64,000 bases of DNA from Vermamoeba vermiformis. Taxonomy: Eukaryota. This document shows, piece by piece, positions 25,634 through 62,108 of this stretch. The stretch is taken from positions 186,001-250,000 of the forward strand of contig JBEWZL010000102.1 in the NCBI GenBank assembly GCA_045837725.1, in the 5' to 3' direction. The notes beneath the pieces are model-generated. The model had not been told where the DNA came from. It made no database searches and saw nothing but the letters and a program-made list of their open reading frames with translations. Each line of letters opens with the position of its first letter. Positions within the stretch are counted from its first letter, which is position 1. A program made the translations under genes and the position numbers.

Positions 25634-25666
<33 letters not shown>

Positions 25667-34046: not shown

Positions 34047-35866
34047 ATGCAGCTCAATCACGTCACGAAGCTCAGCCAAGTGCCGCGATCAGGTCTCAAC
34101 AACTCACTGGTGCACATTAAGGGCTGTATTGTTGCATTAATTACCGACAACAATGCGATTTATTTCTACGAATATAGACACCATGGTAGAGAGCTGCACT
34201 TGCGCGATCAGATCCTCTTCTCGTCCCCGTTGATTGAGATCGAGTCTGTCGCGCTGTCCACGGACGAACAGTGGCTCATCATTGCGACTAGCAGCGCACT
34301 GACCACACTCACTGACTCTGCGCGACCAGCGGTGCATTTGTACAAGGTACCAATTACCTCTTGGTAGTGACAGTTCTGACCGCTGCGCAGGTGTTGGATC
34401 TGACGCGTTCACTGAACGACACCGAGTCACGTGCCATGTTCAGTGCAGTCACGTGTTTTTCAGTGTATTTTCAGCCCAAGACTGTTGCAGCCACACCGAT
34501 CGATCAACAAGAACTCTTGCTGGCAGTGGGTGGTGGCAATGGTGTCGAGTTATTCCGCTGTTCACTGACCGACAAGCACGTGACACCAATGAGATTGCTG
34601 CACGACGCCACGAGCATCAATCACGTGACTTTTGACACTAGCGGTCACTACCTGGCCATTGTACGTGTCACTGATTGACAGCTGGTATTGACACTTGCCT
34701 TTTTAGGTAGCAGCAGATGGCCACGTGGGAGTGTGGTCACGTGACAAGTTACTGACGAGTGCGGGACACATTGATTGGTTCGATCACGTGACCTCGGAGC
34801 GCATCACTGATTTGCAGTTCGGGGGTGACCTGCAACGACCTCTGCTGGCACTCAGCACGTGGGACGGACAACTCTTTGTGTACGCCCGTGACACGCAAGG
34901 TGGCACCTGGCAACACGTGGCAATGAATTTGCTGCTGACACGCCAAGAGAAGAACACGAACAACCCTGGTGGATTTATTCAGTTCAGCGGGCGCTATCTC
35001 GTCACGTGCTTGCAAGATCAGATCGTCTTGTCTGACACGTGTCAAAATGCGATCCACAAGGTGACGCGAGTGCCACTTAAGGACAGCACAGACTGCGTTA
35101 AAGGTGTGACCCTGGTAGATGTCAATGAGGTGACACGTGCTGTATTGGTGCTCACTCGATCACGTGACTTGCACTGCATGACACTGCCACTGCCACTTTC
35201 CATATCTGGCAATGAGTGTTGCATCGCCCAGCACGCAGACGTGGAGTTGTATTTGCAGCACGCAGCAGACTGGCGCCATTCACCTTTGCAGCTGTCACTG
35301 CACTCTGCCACTAGATACGTGTCATTCGCATGTCCGCACGTCAGTTACGAGATGTTGGGCACCTCTGTCACGTGTGCTGTCACGCTGTCACACGTGTGTC
35401 TCGCTGTCGGGTCACAACTGCTGCTGTACGAGACTGCAAATGACACGTGGCGAGATATTTTCACTGAACAGCCTGTAGTTGCCGTCTGTTTCATGAACGG
35501 TGAGTGATAGCTGTGTGTGGTCAGTACTTAATTCTTTGCTGCGCAGATCACGTGGTGGCACTGCTCGAGAGTCACGCGCTAGTCACGTGGCAGCTATCGA
35601 CATTGAAACAGAAGAGCTGTGTGAACCTAAAAATAGACTCTCAGTCACGTGGTACTTTTTTGCTTTCACAGGGAGACTTCTGCTGCGTTGTGCGATGGCA
35701 GAATGACACGTGTCATTTGGAATTCATGACGGTGTCTGACATCGGTCTCAAATTACATTCGACTGCCCGATACGAGCACGTGACTGAGGTGCGGTACACT
35801 ACCTGTCGGAACCTGCAAATGACATGTGCCAGCGGAGAAACTCTCTCGATCGAATGGCCAAATTAA
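34047..35866 (+). CDS. Divergent WD40/beta-propeller protein
   Basis: SINHVTFDTSGHYLA, DGHVGVW and ITDLQF..LALSTWDGQLFVY WD-like blades; introns at about 34348, 34661 and 35499. Confidence 0.65.
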
Positions 35867-35981
35867 AAATAGATTGTAAATAACCTCATTTGTACAAAAA
35901 ACAAAGCGCTTTTCTCTATTGAACAATTAATACAAGCGAGCACTCCTCGGTGCCCAAATATAGTCAAACAATCACGTGACT

Positions 35982-38373
35982 CTATTTCTTGCCACTCTTC
36001 TTGCCGCTCTCACTCGACAGCTCAGAGTTGCTGTCGTCGCGACTCTTCGACTTGACCTCTCGGCGCCGCCTCTTCGCGCGCTCAGTGTCCTGCTCGTCAA
36101 TCTCCATGCCCTCTTCGTCGTCCTCCTCTTTCGGACTGCCGCGTTGACGACGACTGCGACGCTTCTTGTGCTGCGCCTCGTCCTCAGGCTCAATCTGCCA
36201 GTCATCGTCGTCCTCATCGTCCTCGTCCTCGCGCTCTTCTTCCTCCTCGCGCTGCACGGGCACGGCACTCTTGTCGCTCATGGTCACATCGACGGCGGGG
36301 GGCTCTGCCGGGTGCACTCTCCGTCACGTGCTCGCTGTCACTCATCACCACGTCACTCTTCGCGCCCTCACTCGGCACTGGCACTGCGGCACTCTCGGCC
36401 ACGTCACTCTTCGCTGGCACACTGTCACTCGCTGCTGGTGTGCTGGCGACATTAGTGTTCGGTGATGGCACGTTGCCAGGTGTCACCGTCGCACTCGGTT
36501 CGCTCGGTTTGACCTCGCTCTTCTTCTCCTCACTCGCGCTGTGTTCGCTGTGACGTTTCTTCTCCTCGTCGTCGTGCGGCAGATTCAGCGGCGCCAGTCT
36601 GTTCGTCTCGTTCTCGCCCTCTTTGCGCTCGTTGTTCGCGCCATTGGCTGCGCTGCTCAGACTCAGTTCGTTGCTGGTCAGCGCGGGGCCTGCAGGGGCC
36701 AATGAGCCACTGCCACCGAGCTTGAGCTGTGCGGGACCAGGGCCTTGCAGCGGTCCTGGATGCACTGCTGCGCTCTTGCTGGCCTCGCTGAGTGGCACGT
36801 TGTTGTAGAGTGCTGCGCGCAATATTTGCAGTCGTTGCTGAATGTGCTTGTTGTTCGGATCCAGCTCCGAGGCCCGCGAATAGGCATCGAGCGAGTCATT
36901 GAGCTGATTGCAGGACTCGTAGAGGGTGCCGAGATCGTACCAGACCTCAGAGAGATAGGGATTGAGGCGTATGGCGCGCATGTAGGCGTCGAGTGCATCG
37001 CGGTACTGATTGATCTGATAGTACAGCACGCCAATGCTGCACCAGAAGGTCGGATTGCGACTGTCGCGATACACTGCTTGTTGATAGGCGTCGTAGGCCT
37101 TCTTGTAGCGGTGCTGACTCATGTAGCAGCGGCCCAACAAGTACCAGGTCTGACCGTCTGTGGCATCGGCATCGATCGAGCGCATCAAGTACGAGATGGC
37201 AATCTCTTGCTGCTGCTGTGCTGTCATCACCGTGCCGTCCTCGTTGCGCAGTGTGCTGCCCTCTTTGAGCTCGCTGCTGTCACGTGATTCGTGGCCATTG
37301 CTGTCGCTGCCCTGGTGCGTGGTCAGCAGCGAGTGCGGGGCATTGGCACCTGGCACCAGCGCACTGACATCGCTGCCGAGGTGGTGGTACAGCCAGCCGA
37401 GCTGTTGCAACACCTTGCCGTGATTGGGATTGTCTTTGAGCACGCGTTCATAGGCCTCTTTGGCGTGCGCAAAGTCCTTTTTGAGCTCGTGCACGTGTCC
37501 GATCTGAAACCAGATGTCACCCTGCACGAGCGGTCTGGGCGGCTGTTGAATGATCATTCGGAAGCACTCCAAGCTCTTGTCGTACTTGAGCTGTTGCTTG
37601 TAGATGATGCCCAAGCGGAAGTAGATCTCGTTCTTCTTCTCGAACTGCGGATCCATCTTCAGCACCGCATTGAACGCCTCTTCCGCGTGTTCGAAGGAGC
37701 CATAGCGGTCGTACAATATGCCAATGCCGTACCAGAGATTGGGGTCCTGCTTGGGATTGGAGAGGTGATAGAGGGCCTGTTGATAGGAGGTGTACGCCTT
37801 CTGCAGATCTTCCATCATCAAGTAGCAGTGGCCGAGTGCCCCCCATATCTCACCATTATTGGACTCGATGTTCAGTGAGCGCTGAAAGTACTCCACTGCC
37901 TAATTAGGACAACTGGTCAGCACCCACCCCGCGCGAAGAATTGTCTTAATCGTGAAGTGCGCGGTATTGTGGTCATAGTGCACCAGTCATTGCAGTAATT
38001 ATGATTGCGCGCGAATAATCGGCGAGCATATTTAATTTAATTTTTTTTATCGTGCTGCACGTACCTTGGGATACATCTCCTTCATTCGACAGATCGAAGC
38101 TACTTGAGTGAGTGCTTTAATATTATACGGATTATGGCGCAACGCGTTCTCGAAACAAAACATCGCCTTGTCCAAATCTTGAAGGGATTCCCACAGAGCC
38201 CCTAGAAAAATTACTATAAATTAACTGCCCCACGCAATTGCACGGCCCAATCACGCGCGTGCACCGAGACTAGGCGCGCTAAATATACAACACATGTGAC
38301 ACGTACCGAGCTGCAGCCACGAGCTCTCGTTGGCATTGTTCAACTTTTGCACTATCGACACTTGCGTCGTCAT
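35982..38373 (-). CDS. CYC8: TPR corepressor Cyc8/Ssn6 (TrfA-like); apparent 1-nt frameshift near 36311
   Basis: WGALGHCYLMM..LQKAY.SYQQALYHL, LWYGIGILYDRYG, EIYFRLGIIYK, AYDAYQQAVYRD.RNPTFWCSIGVLYYQINQYRDALDAY, EVWYDLGTLYESCNQ. Confidence 0.92.
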
Positions 38374-38548
38374 GAGCTGGAGGTGTGGTGTGTGCTAGAC
38401 AGTGTCGGTGCTGTTGGATCGGTCGCGAATGCAATAACTGAATGAAATCAAATTTAACTCGCGCATGAAAACAAATTATTTTTTTGGTTGTGATCTGCTG
38501 CGTGTCAAATCAATCGACAACGATGCACGCAGCAACAGAGTGCACAAT

Positions 38549-39793
38549 ATGAGCGACTATGAAGAGAGTGACTACGAGCAGTTGATACACTCCGCATTGC
38601 TCCACAAGCGCACGACACGCGAGGTACATCCACGCTCCACCGCGGCACCGCGCTTCGTACTGCGCGACATAGGTGCCCCAGTGACAGCAGTGCACCTCAC
38701 TGCCAGCACTGCCAGCACTGACGCGCTATTTGTGGGCACGCAGCACGGACTGGTGGCACAGTATTCGCTGCAGAGTTATCGACGCGTGAGTGCAGCACAT
38801 CTGCCGCAACACCGCGCGAGTGTGATGAGCTTGGAAGAGGACAATAGGACGTGGTTGTATAGGTAGGGCATTGCATTGATGCGCGAGCTGGAATGGAAAT
38901 TATTATATTATTATAATTATTTTATTATTTCCAACTAAATTAGCGAATTCTTCTCGCCGTTCAGTGAATTGCAAATCACGTGACTCACGCATTGACACGT
39001 TTGACAGTCAAGCACGTGACGGTGCAGTGCATGTCTACGATCTCGCCGTACAGAGCGCCGTTCGTTCACTGAACACGCAGTGTGAAACTTTCTGCAAAGG
39101 TTGCGTAGGTGAGTCACGTGCTGCCACTTGCCTAATTTGGTAACACTCCTTTCAGGGACGCAGGAAGGTGTGGCACGCTATTGGGTCACTTCGTCCTCTG
39201 CAGAGTCATCGCGCGTCGTACTTTGGTCTATAAATAGCGACGAATCGTTGCAATGCTTGCCTGACCACACTGCCAAATATGGCATGTGCATGGCCACACG
39301 CATGCACGACACGGCCTCATACAGCATCATTGCAGGCACGTACGAGAGCGGTCACGTGCTATTTTGGGATGCGCGTCAGACACACGTGCCACTGACCAGG
39401 GCCCTCGTTCATGAACCAAGCAGTGATGGCACTGCTGTCTCGGGACTCAGCTTTGACTGGCAGAGTGACACGTGTCAAGGAGTGGCAGGTGGCACTGATG
39501 CGCAGCTCGTGTCATTCACTCTCGATGTGTCACGTGCTGAGTGTCACGTGACTGATCGCAGAGTGACAGGTGTCAAAGGCGGTACTGCAGTCGTGCGCTT
39601 CGATGCCAGTTTGACACGTGTCATCACGGGAGGTTGGGATCACGTGACACGTGTGTGGAACTGGCCGTTGACACCCAATGTGACACCTGTCACACTGAAG
39701 CACGCAGCAAGTGTCACTGACCTGTCACTGTCACGTGACTCGACACTCGCCGTCGGCACCAATGACGGGCATGTGACGCTGTGGTCGCTGTAA
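38549..39793 (+). CDS. GNB1L: WD40 protein GNB1L/Asa1-like
   Basis: APRFVLR...VTAVH, YGMCMA, YESGHVLFWD, TGGWDHVTRVW, LAVGTNDGHVTLWSL. Confidence 0.75.
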
Positions 39794-39854
39794 TAGCCTT
39801 ATTTGTACAATTGAAGATTTATAAATAGCTACACCTCTATAATTACAATGGGCC

Positions 39855-40374
39855 CTAGTCGCGCGATGTACCGTCACTGCGCTTCAAATAGCCCATGCTG
39901 CGCAGCACGTAGCGCGTCTGTTGCGCGAGGTGCGAGTCGGGCTGTTCGTTCAGAATGCGATCCAAGTACCGCGCACTGCCACTCAGTCCACCACTCACCG
40001 CGCATATGCTGCTCACGCCCAGGGTGAATATCGCGCGCTTCCACGGCGAGGGCTGTTGACCAGTACGACGCAACACTGCGAGTGTGGGTGAGCTGGATGT
40101 ACCTGACTAGCACCGCACGAATGAGGTTACTTACGCGACCATATGCCTTCTGCGAATATGAACCCGACGCCAAAGCCGATGCCACTCCTACATCACGCAG
40201 TAATTAATTAATTAATTGAAAAAACAATTATTAAATAAAGGCATTGACTTCAATAATTGCGGTGCATGAATATGGTACTGACCTCTTCAATAAATCACGG
40301 TAAATGGATTGCAACAATTTGGTTTCAGGATCGCGTGCAGTAGCGGGAGCAGGTTCCACATTGCTCACATCCAT
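39855..40374 (-). CDS. Small hypothetical membrane protein (3 exons)
   Basis: ATG at 40374 (MDVSNVEPAP); GT-AG introns join it to ORF 39855-40076, which has a hydrophobic segment. Confidence 0.55.
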
Positions 40375-40450
40375 GACTTGCTTTCACTTGCTAGCTACTT
40401 TATTAAGCGTGTTGTTTGTTATGTACAAGGTGTGGTGTGCTGCGCTGAGT

Positions 40451-43112
40451 TCATTTGCGACTGAATGCGCGACTGACGCGCACAGCTCCGATTAACCAAA
40501 AAAGGACAGATGCAGCGAGGACAACGTAGCCGAGTGAAATTCCGCCCTGCAGTCCAGTGCGCGGGGACTGACATCGATCGAGCGTCAGAACTGCATCGTG
40601 AGGCACGTGATTGTGCAAGATTTCATGAACGGCGCGCAAGTCATGTACTAATAAGGAAGTGAGGACTGCAGCCAGTTCTTTAAATTTGAGCTGTTCACTG
40701 AACTGAAAAGCTAATTTTAGCTTGAATGTCATGAGGTTGACGCGTTGTGTCAAGGCCACGTCAATAACACCTGTCAAAAGTGTCAAATGGTGACTCACAG
40801 CGCTGATCTGCTCGAGCACGTGATCAGTCAAGTGAATCACGTGATTGACATGTGCAGCGTCAATTTGCAGCTGAGTGACACTCGTGCTGGGTGCATAAGA
40901 GCTAAAAATAGACGGCAAGCGTGCCACCAGCCAGTCATGCGTCCACTGCGGTGTGACAGCTGTCAACGTGTGACTCGCACCGCCTGTCACGTGACTGCCC
41001 GTCTCAATGTGCAATATCTCGTGCATATGAGATTGAAATTTCTGCAAAGCTAACTGGTGTTCCGCGGTCAGCTGCAAAGTGAGGTGTTCTGGCACGAGAC
41101 CTGCAAATGATGAGTTAGCCTAATTTGGTAATGCACTGCTCGAGCAGTCACTGACCCCAGATGAGCTGCAAACAACTGCGCAACACAGCCCTGGTCGGTG
41201 CATCCCCCGCACTGCAAAGATCTGTCAGTGGTGTATACGCATCGATGTATAATTAAATATGTCCGTATATTTCAGATCGATGTATAATTAAATATGTCTG
41301 TATATTTCAGATCGATATATAATTAAATATGTCCGTATATTTCAGATCGATGTATTAAATAGTTATCGATGTCTATATAAATGTATGCAACACGCTACCT
41401 CTCCACCACACGCGCGTCCTCACACGTGTGGCCCAGATCAATGTGCTGCTGAGTGTCGCGCGGCTGCACGGCTATGACCATATTAGGAAAGGTGTGAGAC
41501 CACGAATTGCGAGTCACGTGATCAGAATCCGTCAACAGCACGTGATCTTCAGTCTCGAGCACCACCACTGGCAACACGTGTCTGTCACTGGACTGCACGC
41601 CACTCAGTGCCTGCCAGTGTCTTTGCACGAATTCGCGAATCACGTGGCTGTCAAAGTACTGTCGCGCAGACGAGTGCACAGTGCCACTGCTGTCGAGGTA
41701 CGCGCTCGTTTTGGATTTGAGGGCTGAGCGCTGCAATCTCCGACATATCTCGCATTCCTGGAGATTTCGTCTCACCACTGACACTTGCACTGCACTGTTG
41801 CCAAATTTAGGCAATGCTGGATTTGTAAGCACGGACTGAATGACAAAATAGAGTTATTTTCGCTGAAAGTAACCAAAAAGGGAAATATTGACCTGAAGCG
41901 ATGCCACATCGAATTTCAGTGAATGCGCCTCGTCACGTGATTGAGTCACGTGCAGGACTACGACTTGTATCTCGCGCTGGAGATCAGTGACGAGAGGCTT
42001 AAAATAGACGCGCGGAACAATGACCTGATCGATCAGACGTGCCACCAGCGTGCTGATGTACCGTGCGAGCAGTGTCGTGTCCAAATTAGGCAAGTCCACG
42101 TGTTCGTGCACACCTTCGCCTGCATGACGCGGTCCTGAACTGGCCCTGGTTGATCGTTAGCGTGCTGCAAATGACACGTGTCAATGCGCGTACCTGCTCA
42201 GTGCGCGGAGATCTACGAAGAGATCGCGGTCTCTGTGCCACTCGTTAGTTCGTTCATGAATGCGTAGTTCACTGAACGCGTACCTCGTCCACATGATGCC
42301 CGCACAGCGCTGATTGGCCAGCACGTAATTGCGATGTGATTGGCCGGGCTCGTTCATGAACAGATACACCGTGCTGGCATACGCGTCACGTGCTTGTCGT
42401 GCCAGCACTGCATCGAGCTGCGACTGCTGCACGGGATTGTGTGTGTCGTGGAGATCTGGCGAGAGTCAGTGCTGCTAAAAATAGCCCTGTCCACTTACTC
42501 TGAATTGCGCGGAATAACTCGGAGTTAGTATCACGTGCTGTCACTTGATAGTGAAATCTCCGATGGCTGGGATAGAATGTGGTGTTTGCAGCTGTCACAG
42601 TTGCCAAATAAGGCAAGTGCACCGTACGCGACAACTGATTGTATATCTGCGACTGAAGCACGTGAGTAAACGTCTAAATTTAGCAGCACGTACTTGCAGA
42701 GTGGCTGGATAATTTCCCACGAGCACCACGTGTACAGTCACGTGTCCCAAGTGTGACAGCAAGAACTGCAGCGAATGTTAATACTTTGCTCGATGCGTCA
42801 TAGTCACTGTTGCCTATTACAGCTGCATTGTCCAAATAAGGCAATTACCTGCAAGGACTGCAGCTCAGCAATGTAATTCTCGCGCGGCTCGGACCAGTAC
42901 TGCTGCAGCTCCCTCTGATCGAGTGCCGCATATGGATCATTGTCGTATGTAGTACTAGCACTATTATCGCTATTTTTCAGCAGCAAATAGCTCACTTTGG
43001 ATTCGCTTTGTTGACGTGAGGTTGAAATCTGTTCGTAGGACTGCGCGGTGAGACCAGTGCATAGTGTGAGCACGGTGATGCATATATATGCGAGTACTAA
43101 GTGCGCATTCAT
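40451..43112 (-). CDS. Signal-peptide, C-terminally anchored protein of unknown function (resembles a plant/protist family with a FxDLxAGP..GEG motif)
   Basis: Signal peptide MNAHLVLAYICITVLTLCTG; LFVDLRA...GPRHAGEGV...LPNL; C-terminal TM ISLGYVVLAASVLFWLIG; several introns. Confidence 0.6.
41241..41360. repeat. 35-bp tandem repeat, about 3.4 copies, intronic
   Basis: ATCGATGTATAATTAAATATGTCCGTATATTTCAG at 41241, 41276 and 41311, partial at 41346, with single substitutions. Confidence 0.9.
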
Positions 43113-43245
43113 CGTGCTTGCATGGTCGTGTGGTCAATGCGCTCAATACGACTGATTGTTATTTGTCCTTTGATACTGCACACCACACGAGCACTGCAAC
43201 ACGTTATATTTATTATATATATATTTATAGTATAGCACTGGTGAC

Positions 43246-46027
43246 ATGCAGAGTACGCACAACAAGAAGCGAGTGCAGTTCAGATTTGAACAAGAAAGGC
43301 CCGCCAAGCGACAACGCGTGGATGCAGCTGTTACACGCCGAGCAGTAGTGAGCAGTGAGCTCGAATATGAGCACAATAGTGCTGCTGATGATAGACGTCA
43401 CGAGCTCACGGGCGAGTTACTGCCTGCATCGGTGGGTGTGACCGCGAGTAGCTGGATGGAGACTAGAAACGCGTCAGACGATGATTCTAGCACTCAAATG
43501 ACTAGTGATACGCACAATACAGCACCACTAACTATGTCTGGCTTGTTGGGCTCTATTCGTCTGCCTCGATCTGCCGCACCTGGTAATTTAACTTAATTAT
43601 AGCGCAATATTGTTCGAAATATTATACAATTAATATCGCTATGAAATACTATGATTATCATGACTATACACGCATATTCCGTGCTAAGTACTGACGCACA
43701 CTGGTCTGCAGCGGATCCACGCTTCTCAGCAGGCAAGCGAGGTGCGAGTGCACTGCACAAGCGCAAGAGTGACGACAATAGCAGCACTAGTGCCAGCAGT
43801 CTCGCTGCGCAGGGACTCGAAGTGGCACTGATCGTGAATCTGCATCCGCACGGCTATTCACTGAACGATCAAGAGCAGCTGCACGCCTATCACAAACACA
43901 GCGCGGTGTCACGTGACTTGGTGGAGTCGATCGATCACAATCTGCTCTATCATCCGCTGCACGACCTCGTGGCCAATCTGCAGCCCAAGTACGACCACGG
44001 CGCACTGCTGCTGCAGATCCGCGACTTCAGGGGCCCAGTGCTGTCTGCAGCTGATCGGAAGTGGTCCGATGAGGTCACTGCGGAGGCGAGCAAGGACGCG
44101 GACACGGAGCACAAGGAGCCTGAGGTGAAGAGCGAGGTCAAGGACGAGGCTATTAATAGCAACACCAGCGCTAATAATAGCAACACCAATAATAGCACCC
44201 CGAGTGCGGCCAATAATAGCACAGCTGTCGCACCGAGCACTGCTGTCGCTAATAATAGCAGCACCAATAATAGCACCGCTGCCAGCGAGGAGCCAGGTGA
44301 CAGCAAGAGCGAGGAGAAGAAAGACAGCGCGAGTGTCAAAGTGACACCTGTCACACTCAAACATCCAATCACGTGCTTGCATCCCCGACACTCACAGCAG
44401 TCACGTGGTCTGCCCACCGTGCACTACGTGCTGCTGCGACCGAGTTACGAGCACGTGATCGGCGATGTGCGCCAGCTGATCGATCGATTGGTGGCAGAGA
44501 GTGCCAGCAAAGCGAACAACAGCAAACTCAACGACAGCAGTGCTGCCCTGGATGAGAGCGTGGACCTGGACAGCATGATCGAGTCGTTCATTAACCGCGA
44601 TGAGACTAATAATAGCACCACTGACCAGGGCCCTGGTCTGCGCGTCGAGTCCAAGACTGATGCCACCAATCTGCTCGAGGCCAAATTGTTCCGCGCCCTG
44701 GTGCCAGACCTCTGTCTCGATCCCAGTCCCGAGGTATTGTTCCGCAGTAATTCCGCTCACTACAATGCGCGCAAGATGCTGCGCTCAGTGCCGCACAAAG
44801 ATCTCAAGCGCGCACGTGTAGTGCCACGTGTCATCACCACGCCACGTGCTCTCGGTGTATCTCCGGTGATCGAGAACGAGCACGTGATGCAAATTGAAGC
44901 CACCACCGAGCCCACACCCCTAGCGGTTGAGAATGGCCATTCAGTGAACGAGCACGTGGATGAGTCCGCGTCGAGCAGTCAAGTTGACACGATGACACCT
45001 GTCAATGTGACACTCGAGACTGAGCCCGTTACTAGCTCGAGAGTAAGTCTTTGCAACTATTTCGGCGCTGTAGCGATCGATTGACGAGCTAAATTTAGAA
45101 GCGCGAGTCCAAACTGCTGAATTTTCTGCAAACCATCAGCCACGAGGCCCTGGTCGACGAAAACAATCGTTATTTGCACCGCGAATCGATCTACCAGCCC
45201 CTGTCCATCATCACGAGTGCCAAGAGTGCCACCAGTGCCTTGCCAAATATAGGCAGCGAGCTGTCCTTTGCGCACACGAACAAGATGAAGCAGGCGCAGG
45301 AACAGAGTCGCACACTCAAGTACGGCATCAACAAGAACCGCGACTATTTGCAGCTCGAACTCGCCTTCACGCACCAGGGCTCCGATCACGTGCACTTGTT
45401 GCCCGAGGAGCATGATCCGCGCTGGACGGGCAAGCTCTTGGTGCTCAAGGACGTCGTGCCTGGCAAGCCGCTGCCGTCACGTGATCCGCGCTACGAAGTG
45501 GAGTTCTCGATCGGCGATCAGTACCAGACGCAGCTGTTCGTGAACACGCTCAATCAGATCGAGATGCAGCAGGCCGGCACGCAGCTCATTCAAGACTCGG
45601 CTGCGGGCTATCAAGCACACCCGACCCTGCCGCAGACCCTGCCCTACATGCCACCTGGACCCAATCAGCCACCTGGCCCTGGTCAACCTGTGCCTGGCGG
45701 ACCGGTTAAATTGCCTTTTATGGGTGGTCCTGGTGGCGCAGTGCCGGGCATGATCAAACGTCCCGATCAACCCATGATGCCTGGTGGCATGCCAAAACTC
45801 CCGCCCCAGATGAGTGTGGTGCCCCCTGGCGGCATGCCACAGAACCCCATGCTGATGCAACGCAGACAAGGTAAGCGAGTTACATACGAGAGCTAGTACT
45901 GACCTGGACAGTAGTGCCACCTGGTGCTCCACGCCCTGGTGCTCCAATGCCACAGAGCATTCCTGGCCAGCCCTACATGCCACCAGGTCCCAATCAGCAA
46001 TTCCCACCCAATTATCCACATCATTGA
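43246..46027 (+). CDS. SPT20: SAGA subunit Spt20/SUPT20-like
   Basis: Spt20 domain motifs LIVNLHPHGYSL, LLLQIRDFR, YVLLRPS and LEAKLF...DLCLDPSPEV; P/G/M/Q-rich C-terminus. Confidence 0.8.
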
Positions 46028-46029
46028 GT

Positions 46030-47750
46030 GTGTTCATCTGACTTGTAAATATCAGCATTAAAGTTTGTACTATACATAGCATGTTTAAAATGCCATCAGG
46101 GTGGCCAGCCAAATCTGAGGACAATGGCAATATGAAAGTCCAGCCAGCTATGTTTACTGATTGGGGACTATGTACTAACATTTTTGGCATATTCATTCAG
46201 TACATACATGGTTGGGAATGTACTAGCATAAAGTGGAAGACTTCAGTGTCCAATGGTCACTGCTTACTATTCAGACCATCTCCAATGGGGACATTGGCGG
46301 AAACCAAAAATATTTTGTCTGTCCATCATGGACATTGCATCAGATGATGTTGTAATTGACGTCGGACGTCCCGTCCGCAAAAAATTTTTCGTCCGTGGAC
46401 ATTGCGTCCGTCCGGGGTCGCTGCATCCGCTGATGTTAGTAATTGACCAACTTATACCAAACTTTGCCATTAGCACCAGTGGACCCAAGAAGCACTACTA
46501 TTGGCATCAGGAGGCTTTGGGCTAAACGCCAGAGGCTGAAAATGGCAATGTTCTGCAAAGAACTTAAGTACTAGAACTTTGTTCTATTGGCTGCAATACC
46601 ATTGAAAATTTGGAAACACCTAGACCTATCACTATCTAACAAGAAAATATGAGTAATCATCAAAGATATTGTAGTGGCAGCAATTTGTAAATTTTCAGCA
46701 TTAAGTATGAACCCACCCACCAGCACATATTTGGCACAAAACAACTATACGTATTTTATGCAACCCTGAACTTTGGCTACAATACATTGTCACCTAGCTA
46801 TGAAATTTTTTTTGAATCATCTCTACTTTTTTATGTTGTAACCTTTGTCCAGTATGGTGGCAAACCTTGTTATAATGAAGGGATATGCTTAATCATATAC
46901 ATGGCATATAGAAATCTTGTTAAAATCTTCATACTATATGATGTATGGTCGGGGACGCGGCCAGGTTTTTGGGATGGGACGTCCGCCGCCAAAACCATCC
47001 TACACCATGCGCCGTTGATTGTTTTCAAGTGCCGTCTGGGGGAGCCGCCGGGGATCAACTCTGCTGTTAGCATCAGCAGACCCAATCTTGATCTTTGGGC
47101 TAAATGGTGGAGGCTGACTTCTAAGTTCTGTGAAGAACACTGCACCATGTCTGCAATATGGCCTTGATGCCGCCATTCATCCTACTTGGTAATTAGCAAT
47201 TTTTTTTATTGAGACTCATTATCTTTTTTCAGCTTAGATTGTAGTGCATTAGGCCTACAGCAAAAAGAAGTGCTTTGCAACCCTCCTTTACCCTCGCCCC
47301 CCCGTTCCGCCAAAAAAAGAAGTCAGTATTAACTAGTGCTGGATATCCTTTTGGGGTATCGATATCGAAGTTTTTTAGAAAGCCCTATCATTTGCCATAC
47401 ATTATCAGCTCTCTACAGCAGCCTTCTGTCAAGGTTACTCTTTCCTCATATATTTACATATATTCAACTGAAGCTTAGGCAGACAAAATTATGATTGAGC
47501 ATGAGGGTTGGAGGCTGCTGGGCAGGAAACAAAACTTTTCAATATCGTTGATATAAAATCAATATGTAAGAGCGCAACCAGGGATAGGAGTCTGATTTGG
47601 AAAGTATGATTGCACACAGATAAGGACTCACTTTGGAGGAGTCTGCCTAATTGAACAGACGTGCAGACAGGACAGGAATGGGCCGTAGTTATGGGTTCTC
47701 ATGAAATAAAACCATGGGTGGATGAAAAATGACTTTCGTGAATGTAAATT
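46030..47750. mobile_element. Non-coding, CpG-depleted intergenic island; probable degenerate transposon or repeat relic
   Basis: 1.7 kb without a credible gene in a genome with very short intergenic spaces; CpG scarce except in small GC patches; internal repeat pair differing mainly by CpG-type transitions. Confidence 0.45.
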
Positions 47751-47768
47751 TAATTCGTCAGGGGTAAT

Positions 47769-48827: not shown

Positions 48828-49064
48828 TGTGGTGTGTTGCGCGTGGTAGTGTTGAATTAATTGGTCTTGGTCTGCTTGTTCTGAATAATGGAATTACGTC
48901 GTCGCGCGACGTGACAAAATGTCCGAACGGAGAATAATTCCATATTTGGTAATTTAAATTCGGAGTCAAAAAAAGGAAAATTCGTTGCTGAGAATTCAAT
49001 CGAGGTACCTAATCGTCTCCACATTAATCAGGCCCACGAGTATTCGCAAAGCTGTTTATATACA

Positions 49065-50637
49065 TTACATGGGTGGTGCGCTGGGACTGGGCAGTGCAGC
49101 GCTGCTATTATTAGCGCCAGTGTTGTGGATCACCGTGTTGTGCACCACATTGTTGTACACCACCGTCACGTGACTCGAGGGGTGTGCAGTCACGTGATCA
49201 ATCCAGGCGCTGTTCACTGAATTCTGACACGTGCGCCACTCGTGCTCGCAGTCCTTGAGCTCGGCATCGCGCGTGTGTTCTATTTGCGTCACTCGCTCCT
49301 CGCACTCACTGCGCGCACGTGCCACTTTCAGCTCGCAGTTCTCTACCAGGGCACGTCGCTCGTTCTCAGTCACGTGCTCGCCCTCCACTGCACGCTCCAG
49401 TTCACTCTGCAGCTCGCGCACACGTGACTCGTACACCTTGCGCGCGGCACTCTCTTCTTCGCTGGCACGTGATCGCGCACGTGATTTGCGTTCTTTGCGC
49501 CGCTTTTTGCCCGCAGCGAGCTGATCGTGCAGTGCGCGCAGTTTGAGCACGTGACCAGCAGGCAAGGACAGGGCCTCGCCGTGCACGGAGATTGGCCACT
49601 GCCAGTAGTGGGTCAGCAGCTCCACGGCACTCAGACGCGCAATCTCGCGCTGGAGATATTCCGCGAGCTCTTGCGGCGTGAGATAGCCCTGGTCGACGAT
49701 CCAGGGCGCATAATCACGTGCGATCTGTTCGAGGGTGAGCAGGCCAGTGCGCAGGTCCATGAGTGCGCGGTCGCGGAGCACGTGGAGTGAGAGCAAGTGG
49801 TGCTGCACGAGGGGCTGCGCACCAATCTTGATCAGTTCACTGAACGAGTAGTCACGTGACTTGTCATCTGCGACGATGAGCGAGGTGATGAAGCTCTTGT
49901 CAATATCGAGCTTGTCGACGAGCCAGACCCCGTAGCGACACATGCGCAACAAGCAGGGTGTGGCGTGGTGGTGCAGCACATCCAGCTCGAAGCGCTCTTT
50001 CAAGAACTCTTTGCTCAGCACTCTGTCTGCGACTACGTGATTCAATATCTGGGAGTGATACGTGCTCCATATGTCATCGAAGCCCATGTTCTTGGCGACA
50101 ATCTCATCGATCAGCTTGCTTCTAATGTTCTCGATCGAGGCAACTGTCAATCCAATAAGAATGGAGTTTGCAACAAAGAATAGGCCGCAACTTACTCTTC
50201 TTCAAGCTCTCCCAATCCCACTTTTCAAAGCTCTCGACAAACGGCTTGCTTTTGAATTCTAAGTGCGCAGGTAAGCTACATCCAACATCTTTAGAGTGAA
50301 TTTACCTTGTAAATATTCTCTCAATGCTTCTGGATCATTCATGTATTTTTTAGTGATTAATCCTGCACCAAATATGGATGCAACTGCAATACGTAAATTT
50401 TTAGGGCTGGTCGAAGCGAGATGGAAGGTAGATGTACTTACTTGCGCTGAAGACATAGGTTCGAGCGCGATGTGACCCTCGCAACCATGCTATTAAAGCT
50501 ATACTTGCACCGCTGAGCAACAAGATCCGGCCCAGCGTGCGACCAAAGGAGCGGCGCTGATACCACTCTGCTTTGACGAGCTGCAAGTGTTCTGCATCCG
50601 GATCTGAAGTGGGGGACTGACGTGTGGTCATGTCCAT
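49065..50637 (-). CDS. Hypothetical protein with N-terminal TM pair, helical middle, coiled coil and C-terminal PSAP motif
   Basis: ORFs 50401-50637, 50259-50456 and 49065-50150 joinable by GT-AG introns; ends ALPSPSAPPM. Confidence 0.6.
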
Positions 50638-51091
50638 AGTGTAGTGCGATTACTGAGTGGAAATGACGTTCTTCTGCTTTTCAACACGTCGGCAGAATTC
50701 TGCCTAATATTTCAGGAAGGAAAACAAACTGTCCCATAAGGGACCTAATAGGGACGAGATTTGACGGGGTGACGCAACAGGCAGATAATCAACAGCTGTG
50801 TCGCACCTTGTTGTGAGTGCCTTCCCACACTTACACGACCGTGAATTCAGCACGCAGTCACTGGGAATTCAACCGTACCCGACAGCTACGCCTATTTTAC
50901 ATTACAGCGCGTAGTAGCAGAGAGAGAGAGTACAGCGATATGACGAGGGACACTATTTGGAGCTTTTAAGGTTTTTATTGTTTTTTGTTTGGTTTGGTGC
51001 TATTTTGAGCGCAATTTCTATTCACAGCACACTGTCACGTGACCAGTACTGTCACGCCACGAGTGCAAATTTAGTGGCAGCGGTAGCTAAT

Positions 51092-52749
51092 TTACTGGAA
51101 TCCAGCCACGTACAACCTCTTGTCTGCAAATGTGAAAATAAACTGTGAGTGACAAGCACTAGATATTTTCCAAATAAGGCAAACATACCGATCTCAGCAG
51201 GAATGGGCTTAATCTCCGTATCGAGCTCCTTCTCAATCTTGAGCAAGTTGTAGCGGTCCTCATACGTGACAAGATTGATCGCGAGACCGAGGTGTCCAAA
51301 TCGGCCCGAGCGACCAATGCGGTGCAAGTAGGTCTCACTGTTCTTGGGGAAGTCAAAGTTGATGACGACATTGACTGCGGGGATGTCAATGCCGCGCGTG
51401 AACAGATCTGACGACACCAAGTGGCGGCAAGCTCCGTTTCTGAAGTCGTGGAAGACGCGATTGCGGTGTTCTTGCGGCATCTTGGCGTGAATGTAGAAGC
51501 ACGAGTAGCCGAGGTCCGTGACCTTCTTGGCGAGCAGCTCCACACGCGTGACGGAGTTGCAGAAGATGATGGACTGATTGATGTCCAGCTTGGAGAAGAG
51601 CGTGTTCAGACAGTGCACCTTCTGTCGCTCATCCACAAAGGCGTAGTACTGCGTCACACCCTTGAGCGTCAACTCCTCCATCAGATTGATCTCGTAGGGG
51701 TCCTCTAAGAAGCGGTCTTTGAAGTCCTTCACCGTGATGGGGAAGGTAGCTGAGAAGAGCAAGATCTGACGGTCCTTGGGCAGATAGCCGATGCACTTCT
51801 CCACGGCCAATCTGAACTCGGGGGACAGCAGCTTGTCAGCCTCGTCCATCACCAAGTACGTGCACTGCTCGAGCTTGGCCACGCCCTTGTGCGCCAAGTC
51901 CCAGACACGTGCAGGGGTAGCGACGAGAATGTGCACACCCTGCATGAGTCGAATGATGTCGTCCTTGAGCGAAGTGCCACCAGTGGAGACCATCACTTGC
52001 AGACCTTCAATGTACTTGCCGAGCTGTTTGCACACTTGACTGGTTTGCAGCGCTAACTCTCTCGTGGGCACCAAGATAATAGCTGCAAATATACTCGTTA
52101 ATTACATAGGGCTCGCTAATTATCACAAGAGCAATTGATGGTCAACGGTGACTGCAGTATGAATTATTATTGAAATTAAAATAAATTCAAGATATTTTTT
52201 GCAAACTAACCAAAAATTTTCAACCGCTTTACAACGTCGATATTGAATTATCAACTACGCGGCCAATAATTAAATTATTTTGTTCAATTTACCTTGAATA
52301 GCCTTCTTGGTCGCATCAACTTTCTCCAAGGCAGGAATCAGAAAACTGGCTGTCTTGCCAGTACCGTTCTTCGCACGAGCCAAAATATTGCGGTGAGCGA
52401 GAGCAATGGGAATGGCTTCTTCTTGAATAGGAGAAGGACGTTCAAAGCCCATCTCGTAAATTCCCATCAAGAGCTCTTTCTTTAAGTAATAGCTGTCGAA
52501 ATCAGTGCCTTTGGTAGTTTTGGTAACGTCCTAATATGTTACGTTGATACATGCTATATTGAATTCGTTGGTGCTGATCTTACTTCGGTTTTAGGTCGCA
52601 AATCTGGTGCTGGCTTGTTAATTCTTGATTTCCAATCCTCGTCTCCACTGTACAGAAAAAATGAGGAAAAAATGTTAATATTCATTTTAAAAATTATCAT
52701 AAGCTTAGCCATACGAATTGGACGTGTGGTTATTTCTTTGGTTATCCAT
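51092..52749 (-). CDS. DDX6: DEAD-box RNA helicase DDX6/Dhh1
   Basis: [58 protein letters not shown]. Confidence 0.97.
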
Positions 52750-53011
52750 CCAGCAAATCTTCTATTTTACAAGGACAAAAAAAAAATATTGTACAAAAAT
52801 ACTGCAAGTTTGCTAAAGATAACACGAGCTTCTAGCGATAGTCCTAAAATACGATACTTTCACTCGATTTGTTGCTCTGGTTAAAAAAAATGGGCATAAT
52901 AAAATTTTTTCACGGTTGTTTTTTTAACGATCTGACACGACGCTGAAACACACGTCAACACTGCGACACAGTGTTCTATAACTCATTTATTTCACGTGGT
53001 AATATTGCGCA

Positions 53012-53834
53012 ATGAGACGACTATTTGGGGGTTCAAAAGCAAAAGAGCCCAAAGAGCCACCACCATCCTTGGATGACGCTACCAAAATGGTAAATTTATT
53101 GTACATTATCGCTATCATGGCGATGTAGTGCAGTATATTGTTTTATTGAGGGCATTGAACTTTAATTCTCTATTCGTTCAATTTCAAAAATAATTCGAAA
53201 AACGAAAATACTTTCTAATAATAATAAGAAACAACCAACTAACGCGAATTAGATCAATACGCGCATTGCGGGCATCGAAGATAAGATCAAGAAGCTCGAT
53301 GTTGAAGTGGTGAAGTACCGCGATCAAATGAACAAGATGCGACCAGGCCCCGCACAGAACGCCATCAAACAAAAAGCGCTGCGAGCCCTGAAGCAGAAGA
53401 AGATGTACGAGGCACAGCTCAACTCGCTGATGACGCAATCGTTCAACATGGAGCAGACAGCCTTCACGCAACAGTCGCTGTCCGACACGGCGCTGCAAGT
53501 GCAAGTGATGAAGCAGGCCAATGTGAGCATCAAGGCGCAGTTCCAGGACATCAGCGTGGACGAGATTGACGACCTGCACGATGACTTGCAGGACTTGATG
53601 GACACCTCCAACGAGATACAGGAGATCATGTCGCGCCAGTACGAGATGCCCTACGATGTGGACGAGAGTGAGCTCGAAGAGGAGCTGATGACCCTCGAAG
53701 CAGATCTCGATGCGGATGCGGATGCAGTGCCGAGCTATCTGAGTGAACTGCAGGCACCCAGTGGCGCTATCAATGTCGGAGGACAGAACGAAGCACTGCC
53801 CGATGTGCCGCTCAGCAACACCGTCAACAACTAG
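53012..53834 (+). CDS. CHMP5: ESCRT-III-associated Vps60/CHMP5
   Basis: MRRLFGGSK; KQKALRALKQKKMYEAQ...QSFNMEQ; EIQEIMSRQY..P.DVDESELEEEL. Confidence 0.95.
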
Positions 53835-54163
53835 CGGCAGTGCTGGATTTGTACATAGTAGTAAATAGGGACTTTGCGACCTCGTTGCTGTCATTCTTGG
53901 TGTACCTGCTGCACCGTCATACTAGAGTCGAGTCAGCATACTAATGTTCTCCTATTAGAGTCGTATACATCCGTCAACAATCACCCCCTAAATCAGCCTG
54001 ACGAAATTTCTGGTGGTGATATTAATTTTGACACAGATTCTTATTCAATTCAGCAGTCTCACTTTTCAACGTGTAGCACATACAAATTGCATGCAACATA
54101 TTAGATCGAGCTGTACACTAGCGGAGCTATTCTAAAAGGATTTTCGGCATTGGATCCACTACA

Positions 54164-56518
54164 ATGGATTCGGAACAGTTGGAAGTGATTCAACTTTTAG
54201 ATAAAGATATTGATTTGCTTAAAAAAGGTAATATAATAGTCTTACGCATGTATTAGCACTATAATTCACGACTAGAATATTTGCGGAATTAATATTTTAA
54301 TTTTTTGAAATTCTCGTTACCAATTAATGCCGCGAATAACACTCTAGCATCGCAAGGTATACGAGATGAGCGCAACAAACTGCCCGATCTCATCAAGACA
54401 TCATTCAGCGACTCTCAACTTGCTGATCCCAACATGCTCGATCTGTTCGTAGATCTGCTCCAACTCTCACAGCAACACTTGACAGTACCGCAATCACGTG
54501 CCGGATCACGTGACAAATCTTTGCAGACGTGGCCCGTGCTCGAAGTCGTGCCTGACACGCGGCCCAGTCCTCTGCTCGTGCAGTGTCGGCACTGTGGCCG
54601 CATGTTGCGCGCTGAAGTGTTTCACGAGCACGTGACTGGCTGTCAACTGGCACGCGCTGAATCACATGGCGAGTCACGTGGCAGTGCGAATAGAACACGC
54701 GACAACAGCCCTGCCCCGCGTCACGACGACAGCGAGGACTCGGCCACTGACGAGCGCAGTCGTGAGCACGTGACTGATCGTGCGGGTCAGGACTTGACAC
54801 GTGACATGTCAAATGTAGCACGTGATCTGTCTCCGCTGGCACGTGAGCTCGTGAAGAAAATTGGCGCTGAACACAGCAAACGCAAGCGCGACACTGACAC
54901 GGAGGATGAAGGTTTGTGTTTGACACGTGTCATTCGCTGTACTCGAGCTCACTATTGCTTGTATTTTTAGCGCCCAAGAGCAAAAAACGCAAACTCAGCA
55001 ATGAAACAGCTGTGCTTCCTAAAAAGGAAATAGCCACGACGACAGAAGTGCCACCACCCATCACTCAACAACACGTGCCGATTATTGACACGTGGACAGC
55101 GGAAGAACACGATGAACGCACGACACTGAAGAAATTGTTGATGTCTAAAAATAGCAGCAAGAGCAGCGAAGAGCACGTGCAAGAATTGCTGCAATTTATC
55201 AAAACAGTGCCACCACGACCCCTCGTGTTCACGAATGACGAGGACGCGCTCTATTTTTGGCACCAATCGCGCGCGCAGTCCACGCTGCCAGTTGCCACCA
55301 GAGCCGCACGTGATCGTCGCGCCCAACGACTGCGCGGTGCCGGAGTGCAAGTGAGTGCGCTGCCGAGTCGCGAGTTGGTGCTGAGCGAGTACCGCTACAG
55401 CGTGCCCAATCGACAGCTCAAACTCACCGCGCAACAAGTGCTGCTGCAACAGACGGTCAAGATCGCACTGCTCAGCGGACTGTTGCATCAGAACGACGCC
55501 ACCACCGGCAACAAACAGCTGCGCTCCAGCAAGGGACGCGTGCGAGCTAATAATAGCACCACACCGACCCCTCCGCCGAGTGCAGCAGCGCCACCGAGCA
55601 CGAGCGACAAGAGCGCGAAGACGAGTGACGCGAGTGCTGCGGAGAGCGAAGTGGACGAGAAGTCACTCATGGCCAAGCTGCTGCAGCTCGAGCCCAGCAC
55701 GCCTGCACCTAATAATAGCACCAACAACACGAACAGCGTGCCACCGACAGCTAATAATAGCAACAATGTGACAGCAGTGAGTACACCAGTGCCAGTCACC
55801 ACCGCACCCAGCACGTCGATTGCGGTGCCGGCCACACCTGTCACCCCCGTGCCTGCTGTCACTGCTGTCACTCCCACACCAGCCACGGCAAAGACTGGTC
55901 ACGTGCCCACGCTGCTCGTGCCCAACTCCGCGCTGAGTGCCACCCTGATGAAAGATATGGCCTTAAAAGGCAAGACAGGCTCAGGTGTGCCACTGACAGC
56001 TGTCACACTGCTGCACCCGACTCAACTGCAAGGTGCTAATGTAAGTTGTGTTTATTGCCTAATATGGTAACTCAAACATCACGTGCACAGATCAAGATGC
56101 AAGTCAAAGGCAAAGTCCCGCCCCTGACACAGCCCAAGGCCGCGCCCCCTCCGACAGGTGTCAAAGCAGCACCCGCGCCAGTGAGTGTCACGCCGAAGCA
56201 GATCTCGCCCAAGCCCGCAGTCAAACAGCCGCCACTGCTCGCCAAGCCCGTGCTGGACGGAGCTCTGCTGAGCGGCAACCGAGTGGCGGTGCTGCCGATC
56301 ACGAGTGCGAACACGCCGAGTCTGATGCGCGCACCGAACACGACTACCGTGGCTGGACGCGTGGTGAGCAGCATGCCTGTCGTGCTGACCACGGCCAAGC
56401 CACTCGTCGCACCGCCCAATGCTGTCGTGCCACCCACCGTGCCGGCCAAGAAGAGCACTGCCAAGTAAGGACATTTGTGTTGTGTGGCACGTGACTGACT
56501 TGCTAAATTAGGAAATGA
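54164..56518 (+). CDS. Sgf73/ataxin-7-like protein (N-terminal Zn finger, long low-complexity tail)
   Basis: LVQCRHCGRMLRAEVFHEHVTGC resembles the N-terminal Zn finger of Sgf73/ATXN7. No clear SCA7 domain seen; P/T/A-rich C-terminus. Confidence 0.55.
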
Positions 56519-57653: not shown

Positions 57654-57713
57654 TGTTCGCGGTGTGTTAATCAGATCTGCAATTGAATTAGTTGTTGAAC
57701 AGCACAACGCAGC

Positions 57714-58424: not shown

Positions 58425-58673
58425 CCTGTACATATACACACTGAATAGACCATTAAATATAGCTATTTACTGCGACTAGGACCCGAGTGCATATTATTAG
58501 ACACTCATTACTACTCGACTCCGATCAGTCCTCGGCACGTGTCAAACAAATATCTGTGCACGGCTGTGAAATTTTGTTTTGTTCTTGAGCACAGCAACGA
58601 GCAGCACACCACAGCTCTGAGATAGTCCACACGCTTGTATATATATATATATATACCAATATACACAGTAACA

Positions 58674-60348: not shown

Positions 60349-60383
60349 ACGGCGCTGCAACAGCTCAATAAATATTCACCTAG

Positions 60384-61096: not shown

Positions 61097-61174
61097 TGAG
61101 TTAATAACAACAGCCGCAAATGATTACCGGTTTTGTACCGAGTGAAATTTCAGTTAGTTTTCCGAACTCGACCT

Positions 61175-62108
61175 TTACTTCGCTTTAGTGCCAGAGCTTT
61201 GCTGAAGGCACAATCTAGAGTACATGTATGATAGGTGGTGAGTGATTTGCTGAACGGAGAGTTCCGAGGTGAAGTTCGAGAGTGAAGTGAGTCCGATGAG
61301 GGTGCGCGAATGACAGGTGTCAAAGTGCGTCCTATGCCGCGCAATTCTTCTCACGAGAGCATGCCGTGCTTCTTGAACAGCTCAATGTACTGGCGCGTGT
61401 GCGTGACTGGTGCTGCGTGCTGCTCAATGTCGGAGATTTCGCTGAGATCGATCAGCAGTTCAGGAGTGGTGCTCGCCACGTGGGTGAATTGATCTCCGAA
61501 GATGAGCTCGAGACACTTGACAGCTGTCACGGAGAGTTGTTCGCGAATGTTGCGGCTCGTGTTGCTCGCGGGGGGTGTGTTGGCACGGCGCTTGAATGGG
61601 TTGTGTATCACGCCGAGCAGCTCTTCGTGCACGGAGCTGGGCAGTGCGAGATGTGCCACTTCCTGATTAGTATAAGTCACGTGATACACCACGCCGCGTG
61701 GCTGGTCTGCTGCGGTCACTGCGAGCTGACGCAGTTCAAAGCCGCGCCACCTGGTGCGCAGTCCCTGTGGTGCCATTAATACCACATTATATGCTATTGG
61801 AGGGCTATATGAGTACTTACGCGAAGGTGAATGGTCTGTTTGGTGGTGAAGAGACGGATCTTGTCGAAAATTAATTTGATTTCTCGATCAGCCTCTAACA
61901 CTTGGTTGTCGCACATTAAATATGACTTGTCCGCCAACGTATCAAAATTAACTAAATAAGTAGGCTTAATACGAGTCTTGGGTGCAGTGGGGAGCTGAAG
62001 TTGGATGGTAGATTGGATGGGCGTGTTAGTCGTGCGCAATGTGTTGGGTGTTACTGGCTGATAGAACGAAGCTGATTCGTTGGTGTATAATAATATGCTG
62101 GAGTACAT
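61175..62108 (-). CDS. Hypothetical protein; ends at 61351 or continues through a frameshift to 61175
   Basis: ORFs 61794-62153 and 61351-61785 joinable by an intron; another frame stays open for about 60 codons downstream. Confidence 0.45.

Follow-up and report, generated by a model that had tools for sequence, protein, structure and literature searches.

The palindromic E-box hexamer CACGTG is present in large excess in a stretch of 64,000 bp of DNA from Vermamoeba vermiformis (contig JBEWZL010000102.1, positions 186,001 to 250,000), hereafter called the window. With 129 copies against a mean of 24.2 (sd 5.3, max 40) over 100 dinucleotide-preserving shuffles, none of which reached 129, it stands out as the hexamer with the strongest over-representation in the window (z = 21). 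The excess amounts to 5.3-fold over the window as a whole, to ~1.9-fold in conserved genes and to ~13-fold in seven genes that are termed hot in what follows. In genes tolerant of the change, wholesale replacement of amino acids comes on top of a preference for the hexamer at silent sites. Comparison with related lineages, based on few genes and on the DNA of two taxa, supports a net gain of sites together with their retention. The gene models used throughout are approximations of our own.

Abundance of CACGTG in the window

A first-pass annotation of the same sequence had counted by hand about 21, 10, 11 and 9 copies in four clusters, about 100 copies in 34-62 kb and about 22 in 1-33 kb. The recount is in close agreement, with 21 copies in 34420-35790, 10 in 39110-39740, 12 in 49160-49860, 9 in 54490-54930, 105 in 34001-62000 and 21 in 1-33000. 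For the interval containing 105 copies, Markov models of order 1, 2 and 3 predict 14.4, 22.7 and 49, respectively, the order-3 value (like that of order 4) being inflated by sub-words of the motif itself. The density is therefore not explained by composition, a possibility that the annotation had singled out for checking.

The sites are not an artefact of assembly, since RNA and DNA contigs from four public runs agree with the hot genes, covering them with 2-4 differences per 0.6-1.3 kb; the sequence is thus real and transcribed. Reads and contigs from the same runs differ from the window at 378 single letters over 34400-54399, and none of the 40 such differences that were listed falls in a CACGTG, where about one would be expected given that the sites make up 2.5% of the stretch.

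Distribution of sites among genes

The region is compact eukaryotic DNA with short GT..AG introns of 41-210 nt, as confirmed by contigs. Genes that could be named encode a Hop-like TPR protein, DDX6, alanine aminotransferase (ALT), Snf7/CHMP5, RagA, ELO, an ASH2-like protein, myotubularin, PCMT, Spt20 and CtIP/Sae2, and there are two U6 snRNA genes. Expectations were computed gene by gene with the sites masked, for a table of 34 genes. The seven hot genes (G17, G19, G21, G22, G24, G27 and G30; Table 1) hold 89 sites against ~6.6 expected, a ratio of ~13, at 4.8-11.5 sites per kb. The fifteen genes of clear family hold 19 against ~9.9 (ratio ~1.9), and the remaining twelve 14 against ~5.0 (ratio ~2.8). 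No site is found in the exons of ALT or in CHMP5/Snf7, and one is found in DDX6, in line with the earlier remark that conserved genes nearly lack the motif. The hot genes have no family match or a weak one or, in the case of the Spt20-domain gene, hold the majority of the sites outside the region that matches the domain. Because hot genes are poorly matched and clear families stay near expectation, an inverse relation between site density and protein conservation, which the annotation had postulated, holds in this window. Its view that the intensity of the process is graded along the chromosome fares less well. Among the hot genes lie cold conserved ones (Hop, ELO, DDX6, CHMP5), so that the pattern follows genes and does not form a smooth gradient, and because the cold left half consists mostly of conserved families, a regional effect is not separable from gene content.

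Pfam searches and sequence searches against the PDB gave nothing specific on the function of the hot genes. The WD40-like gene G17 is confined to a small clade, and a search of 1.84 billion representative sequences with its ortholog P0001 returned only six fragments of true orthologs, followed by generic WD40 proteins. RNA contigs show that the hot genes are transcribed, and most of their sites lie in transcribed exons. In the Spt20-domain gene G24 every permissive amino-acid context carries a site (11 of 11).

Table 1. Coordinates of genes, CACGTG sites and non-coding RNA genes in the window (positions are those of the window)
Feature	Position	Strand	Remarks
Site-dense domain with the seven hot genes	34428..56493		98 of the 129 CACGTG sites of the window
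G17, WD40-like	34047..35866	+	4 exons, 560 aa; 21 sites against 1.2-2.0 expected, all exonic
G17 exons	34047-34346, 34391-34660, 34707-35499, 35547-35866	+	gene model
G19, WD40, weak Pfam matches	38492..39790	+	12 sites against ~1.1-1.7 expected
G21, transcribed, no Pfam match	40282..41119	-	4 sites against ~0.4-0.5 expected
G22, multi-exon, no Pfam match	41398..43052	-	14 sites against ~0.8-1.25 expected
G24, Spt20-domain gene	43645..45913	+	11 sites, 7 of them (44813-45478) after the Spt20-matched stretch
G27, no Pfam or PDB match	49068..50646	-	12 sites against ~0.6-0.8 expected
G30, no Pfam or PDB match	54293..56465	+	15 sites against ~1.5-2.1 expected
Copies of TGACACGTGTCA (starts)	20559, 24407, 30190, 33066, 35033 (35033..35044), 35704, 39466, 39612, 42172, 54921		nothing alike beyond the 12 bases
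Old retained site, ATCACGTGAC	34785..34790		within a 21-base block identical in the syntenic locus L010
Other five sites common to window and L010 (starts)	34622, 35161, 35444, 35549, 35777		from alignment
Derived site	34577..34582		HV (CACGTG) in the window; QV in L010 (CAA GTT) and in P0001
U6 snRNA genes	10731-10834, 25613-25716	+	equal scores (114.6 bits each), 15 kb apart
SNORD36-like box C/D snoRNA	15894-15973	-

Placement of sites and effect on proteins

Coding segments were mapped approximately, by codon-usage log-odds, over 36 kb. In 34-62 kb, coding DNA contains 88 sites against 14.0 expected and non-coding DNA 16 against 2.3; in 1-34 kb the corresponding figures are 15 against 8.3 and 8 against 3.0, the non-coding counts being rough because several of these sites lie in exons missed by the coding map. 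Overall, 103 of the 128 classified sites fall in predicted coding segments. Within three hot ORFs the sites are distributed over the codon phases as 4/3/5, 4/4/2 and 5/6/1, so that all three phases are used. The use of all phases and the similar excess in coding and non-coding DNA place the signal at the level of DNA. None of the intergenic sites inspected occupies a consistent promoter position, and ordinary promoter function for the CACGTG sites is unlikely.

The consequences for protein sequence are pronounced, and the HV, SRD-type and TC peptides that had been noticed in the divergent ORFs are all in excess. In hot coding segments, the dipeptide HV occurs 39 times against 11.6 expected, and in 36 of these cases it is spelled CACGTG, where codon usage would give 20.9. 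For T[CW] the count is 14 against 6.3, with 13 of the 14 using ACG although this codon accounts for 28% of Thr codons, and for [SPTA]R[VADEG] it is 44 against 16.6. Of all residues, histidine represents 4.9% in hot segments and 2.8% in cold ones. When each amino-acid context able to accommodate a site is counted as permissive, hot genes offer 99 permissive contexts (31.8 per 1000 codons), of which 77 are realised as a site against 21.2 expected from codon usage. Outside hot genes, permissive contexts number 6-12 per 1000 codons; the genes of 1-34 kb have 36 (6.3 per 1000 codons), and 15 of them are realised against 4.7 expected. That contexts are realised above the codon-usage expectation indicates a window-wide preference for CACGTG at silent sites.

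These figures bear on whether composition, codon usage or recurrent protein motifs, such as WD40 blades containing H-V, could have produced the excess as a side effect. Two of the hot genes are of WD40 type, HVT recurs in G17, and CAC and GTG are preferred codons. Nevertheless, this explanation is very improbable: models preserving di- and trinucleotide composition yield 14-23 sites where 105 are found, all three phases are used, the hexameric spelling of HV and the choice of ACG before C or W both exceed what codon usage provides, non-coding DNA is enriched as well, and five of the hot genes are not WD40 genes.

Anatomy of the extended word

Around the core, the consensus extends to R-[T>G,A>>C]-CACGTG-[A>C,T>>G]-Y, that is, RTCACGTGAY. 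Of the pooled half-sites, 83% have a purine at position -2, and at position -1 the frequencies of T, G, A and C are 0.43, 0.24, 0.21 and 0.11; the form CCACGTGG accounts for 2 of the 129 sites. Part of this flank pattern is imposed by coding, since one frame of TCACGTGA contains TGA. Statistically, the left and right flanks of a site vary independently of each other at distances 2-6; at distance 1 they almost do, with 48 self-complementary pairs against 39 expected (P = 0.035). The half-site alone is not enriched, GTCAC occurring 177 times outside full sites against 159 expected. Of 431 occurrences of RTCAC, 106 continue with GTG, and the near-misses GTT and GTC follow RTCAC twice against ~9 expected from other CAC contexts. 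Independent half-sites combined with a symmetric flank preference indicate a dyad read on double-stranded DNA by a dimeric protein, and from the form of the word we infer that RTCACGTGAY would have a dimeric, sequence-specific protein as its reader. The flanks match the preference of the USF/Cbf1/TFE class of bHLH-ZIP factors rather than that of Myc/Max. Pfam scans detected no bHLH domain among the ORFs of the window that were scanned.

A role at the RNA level would have CACGUG palindromes pair between transcripts or bind an RNA-binding protein, for example so as to cluster or regulate the hot mRNAs. Most sites do lie in transcribed exons of transcribed hot genes, and a perfect 12-mer, TGACACGTGTCA, is present in 10 copies against ~1.6 expected from independent half-sites. 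A 793-nt stretch of G27 also folds better than 20 of 20 shuffles (z = -3.2), but exon 3 of G17, which contains 12 sites, folds no better than its shuffles (z = +0.5; control gene, z = +1.2). Furthermore, the flanks show no covariation that would lengthen the palindrome at distances 2-6, sites are also found between genes and, at 42659 in G22, within an intron confirmed by RNA contigs, and the symmetric flank preference is what recognition of double-stranded DNA predicts. An RNA-level role is therefore improbable.

Gain and retention of sites in related lineages

A scan of metagenomes with the Hop protein returned 12 loci. Synteny with the window is confined to one of these, L010, which corresponds to 29950-36720. 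In L010, 13 sites are found where 3.3 are expected, and 13 of the 26 half-sites have RT flanks. The remaining 11 loci together contain 23 sites, each locus lying near or below expectation, and RT flanks occur on 1 of their 46 half-sites. The presence of the excess in the window and in L010 and its absence from the 11 distant loci mark it as a trait of a small clade.

Between the window and L010, G17 is 69% identical in DNA and carries 21 and 8 sites, respectively, six of them at the same aligned positions (Table 1). The ortholog is the densest gene of L010 as well, its 8 sites comparing with 4 and 1 in the adjacent genes. Old sites are retained, since 6 of the 8 sites of L010 are kept against a background of 16.7% of all coding hexamers being identical (P = 4e-4, for this one gene pair). 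The third intron of the same ortholog in L010 (reverse strand) has a GC donor where the window has GT, giving a GC-AG intron at a conserved position.

The protein P0001 provides a third lineage for G17, with pairwise identities of 69.5%, 64% and 65.5%. Six sites are common to all three lineages and, at the amino-acid level, seven further window sites are matched by P0001 only. Four sites are private to the window and one or two to L010, and eight permissive contexts are private to P0001; at no position does the window lack a context present in both others. The gain at 34577..34582 consists of one replacement and one silent change, and the same change from QV to HV arose in parallel in the lineage of P0123. 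HV exceeds expectation 3- to 7-fold in the four longest G17 orthologs (window, P0001, L010 and P0123); among shorter ortholog fragments it occurs twice against 0.5 and once against 0.5 in two, and in two others it is absent. For G27, 10 of the 12 window sites are compatible at the amino-acid level with P0237, an ortholog of 75% identity. A bias toward site gain, which the annotation had suggested looking for, is thus seen in the substitutions separating the three G17 lineages.

The way in which sites differ between lineages also speaks to an origin from a small mobile element, whose remnants or footprints the sites would be, or from templated insertions. At one window-specific site L010 has a gap of 9 bases, and four pairs of sites lie exactly 12 bp apart (P = 0.004 uncorrected), a spacing unproven given the many that were tested. 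In 14 of 15 cases, however, a site absent from the G17 ortholog differs there by one to three point changes without any indel. Comparison of the sequence around sites revealed no similarity past ~10-12 bases and no repeat families, and Tandem Repeats Finder reported no array in the window that would explain the sites. Spacing between neighbours in hot genes is random, with 10 spacings of <=20 bp against 12.8 simulated and residues modulo 3 of 28/28/26. We accordingly give an insertional origin next to no weight. Composition, codon usage, protein repeats and mobile elements are all excluded or very unlikely as the cause of the excess.

Other features of the window

Several further words are iterated in the window. 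The word ACCAGGGC/GCCCTGGT, often extended to GACCAGGGCC, has 17 copies against ~1 expected between 22476 and 49686; it occurs in both orientations and several codon phases, 13 of the 17 copies lie in 36-50 kb, those at 44624 and 44630 stand back to back, and L010 and the other loci have 0-1 copies. The word GGTGGCAC/GTGCCACC likewise has 17 copies in both orientations, mostly coding, between 27685 and 57751, against 1.7 (first-order) or 4.2 (third-order Markov) expected, with none in 1-27 kb. TAATAATAGC occurs six times in coding DNA of G24 and G30 (44172-44607 and 55548-55752), within Asn/Ser-rich stretches. Between G21 and G22, at 41241-41355, there is a 35-bp tandem repeat rich in A and T (3.3 copies, 95% matches). 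The hexamers TGGTAT and TGGGTA and their complements, which are the top hexamers of L001, L007 and related loci, were considered as analogues of the palindrome and rejected: they sit at exon-intron junctions (TG|GTAT...) and are splice-donor signals of very intron-rich relatives.

The interval 46406-47072 has a summed contig depth of 76 in the water-metagenome run X7, against ~3-5 elsewhere, and no cover in three RNA-type runs; the element here could be one that is repeated or widely shared. No Pfam match was obtained for the ORF at 46691-47164. The habitat labels include water, root and biofilm metagenomes. The top database match of DDX6 (51055-52101), at 728 bits, is a near-identical protein labelled as an unverified contaminant of a fish assembly, on a 373-kb contig, and on this match an organism identical or very close to that of the window seems to occur as a contaminant in other projects. 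The best named relatives are Balamuthia (84%) and Cymbomonas (81%), DDX6 being too conserved for placement. For ALT, a search of a protein atlas resolved the affiliation no further than Eukaryota.

Discussion

The account to which we tentatively give most weight, while holding it short of an even chance, is a lineage-specific directional pressure limited by protein constraint, whether a bias in repair, conversion or transmission or genome-wide selection for the word. A directional process of this kind, acting on double-stranded DNA, would first create RTCACGTGAY and later preserve it. Its sites would be made by ordinary point substitutions, in exons (in any codon phase) and in non-coding DNA, and the number of copies in a gene would be set mainly by the tolerance of its protein for H-V, S/T/A/P-R-x and x-T-C/W. 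The word would be read by a dimeric protein with USF/Cbf1/TFE-type bHLH-ZIP specificity. In this reading the engine would lie in repair, gene conversion or transmission favouring the word or, to the same effect, in selection for it across the genome, and not in regulatory tuning gene by gene; processes of this type have been discussed for cyanobacterial HIP1 and bacterial uptake sequences. The excess in every compartment and phase, the silent excess in unrelated genes, the random spacing and the appearance of sites at new positions in each lineage favour this reading. A more specific version, in which a dimeric CACGTG reader biases repair or gene conversion toward its own site, so that the palindrome spreads selfishly, overwrites codons of tolerant genes and alters protein composition, is unlikely. 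The annotation had preferred a drive process to promoter function; a promoter role is indeed unlikely with 103 of 128 classified sites in predicted coding segments.

The alternative that most directly competes for the same evidence is that selection packs certain genes, or a chromatin domain of ~22 kb, with binding sites for a USF/Cbf1/TFE-like bHLH-ZIP factor. Binding would put their transcription, chromatin state, replication or recombination under the control of the factor, and the protein changes would be the price. We regard functional arrays of this kind as somewhat unlikely, though a strong rival. The flanks fit the known preference of these factors (T at -1, purine at -2, CCACGTGG in only 2 of 129 sites) and the half-sites are independent. 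Density is specific to genes, the same gene being densest in L010; old sites are retained above background (6 of 8 against 16.7%); the most conserved genes have no excess even at silent positions (1 of 17 contexts); and the hot genes are clustered. On the other side, at least 10 exonic sites per kb at random spacing are unlike any regulatory architecture known to us. Across the window, the excess also extends to unrelated genes and to DNA that is not coding. No common function is recognisable among the hot genes (two of WD40 type, one Spt20, four unmatched), and new sites appear at different positions from lineage to lineage rather than staying fixed.

A number of observations weigh against a general directional pressure. 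The label hot was assigned by site density, which makes contrasts between hot and cold genes partly circular. The hot genes all fall within 13 consecutive genes of the 34 (P ~0.007 or less), and their clustering could reflect a local function or a chromatin domain. Cold genes inside 34-57 kb have 18 permissive contexts (9.4 per 1000 codons), of which 6 are realised against 4.1 expected. The use of silent positions is uneven: PHD (4/6), Hop (3/5), myotubularin (3/5) and Spt20 (11/11) are better filled, and ALT (0/5), ASH2 (0/4), one WD40 gene (0/3) and DDX6 (1/5) together realise 1 of 17 contexts, which is not what a uniform neutral bias predicts. The ankyrin gene beside G17 has 3 sites where G17 has 21, at an identity to L010 of 59.5% against 64% for G17; its acidic low-complexity stretches may simply not accommodate CACGTG. 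The proposal of the annotation that the motif is gained wherever purifying selection allows consequently stands for the inverse relation to conservation, and falls short for the ankyrin gene and for the 1 of 17 silent contexts. The polarisation of changes in G17 relies on one gene, on DNA of two taxa and on nearly trichotomous distances, and a C-terminal context that reads ITW in L010, P0125 and P0127 and IEW in the window and P0001 is a possible loss. With respect to the route, the deamination-type neighbours CATGTG/CACATG stand at 0.34 of first-order and 0.61 of second-order expectation and are equally depleted in both halves (hot, 10 against 35.2; cold, 10 against 28.9), so that a route by T:G-to-C:G repair leaves no specific trace. 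Finally, we know of no molecular mechanism of this kind for a eukaryotic nucleus.

Comparison with known iterated words

Bacteria harbour short words that spread against the interests of protein coding; HIP1, uptake sequences and Chi are examples, and what causes them is still debated. The nearest analogue in sequence is the class-B E-box, which is bound by bHLH-ZIP factors and includes the sites of USF, the TFE/MITF 'CLEAR' element GTCACGTGAC and the RTCACRTG of yeast Cbf1. The window sites resemble it in the CACGTG core, with T/A adjoining, R/Y one step out, C/G adjoining disfavoured and independent half-sites. They depart from it in location, ~80% being exonic and at up to 11.5 per kb in place of a promoter position, and, for Cbf1, in that the tolerated form CACATG is depleted in the window (7 against 32.8). 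In E. coli, very-short-patch repair by Dcm/Vsr acts as a bias through which a methylatable word gains in frequency at the cost of its T-containing neighbour. The window differs in that no depletion of CATGTG/CACATG specific to the hot region is seen and in that the CpG observed/expected ratio is ~1 everywhere in the per-gene table, a value that speaks solely against heavy mutagenic CpG methylation.

The closest parallel in behaviour is HIP1 (GCGATCGC), the highly iterated palindrome of cyanobacteria (PMC5861425, PMC4390886), for which an excess of 15- to 300-fold is reported and whose function is described as still unknown after 20 years (PMC5861425). Like HIP1, the window word is a short palindrome, here many-fold over expectation within the window, spread through genes in all coding frames and, for the one gene pair compared, kept between orthologs above background. 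The differences are that the window belongs to a eukaryotic nuclear genome with introns, that the word is an E-box, that its excess is 5-fold overall and ~13-fold in hot genes, and that it is strongly uneven between genes and visibly changes amino acids. The DNA uptake sequences (DUS/USS) of Neisseriaceae and Pasteurellaceae are short words that are tolerated in coding DNA and reach high genomic frequency through a transmission bias and not through local function (PMC1939737). They need bacterial natural transformation and are not palindromic hexamers. No comparable uptake route is known for the case described here. The catalytic domains of TET enzymes are reported, in one study, to prefer CpGs within bHLH/bZIP sites (PMC9451156), which may serve as a mere lead toward a methylation-linked route.

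Full-text searches of the literature, covering what lies outside subscription journals and supplementary files, brought up no eukaryotic precedent for the enrichment, and a hyper-abundant nuclear palindrome that reshapes proteins is apparently undescribed. If this nuclear example is true, word pressures of the kind known from bacteria operate in eukaryotes too, and if the drive reading is true, the window would hold the equivalent, in a nucleus, of what HIP1 is in cyanobacteria and uptake sequences are in bacteria. The system offers introns, orthologs in several lineages, amino-acid consequences and continuing parallel gains, together with a concrete candidate reader in the form of a bHLH-ZIP-type dimer, and it lets drive and selection be told apart by population genetics and crosses. 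It also calls for caution in annotation, since lineage-specific proteins rich in HV, SRD and TC/TW may partly reflect a process at the level of DNA.

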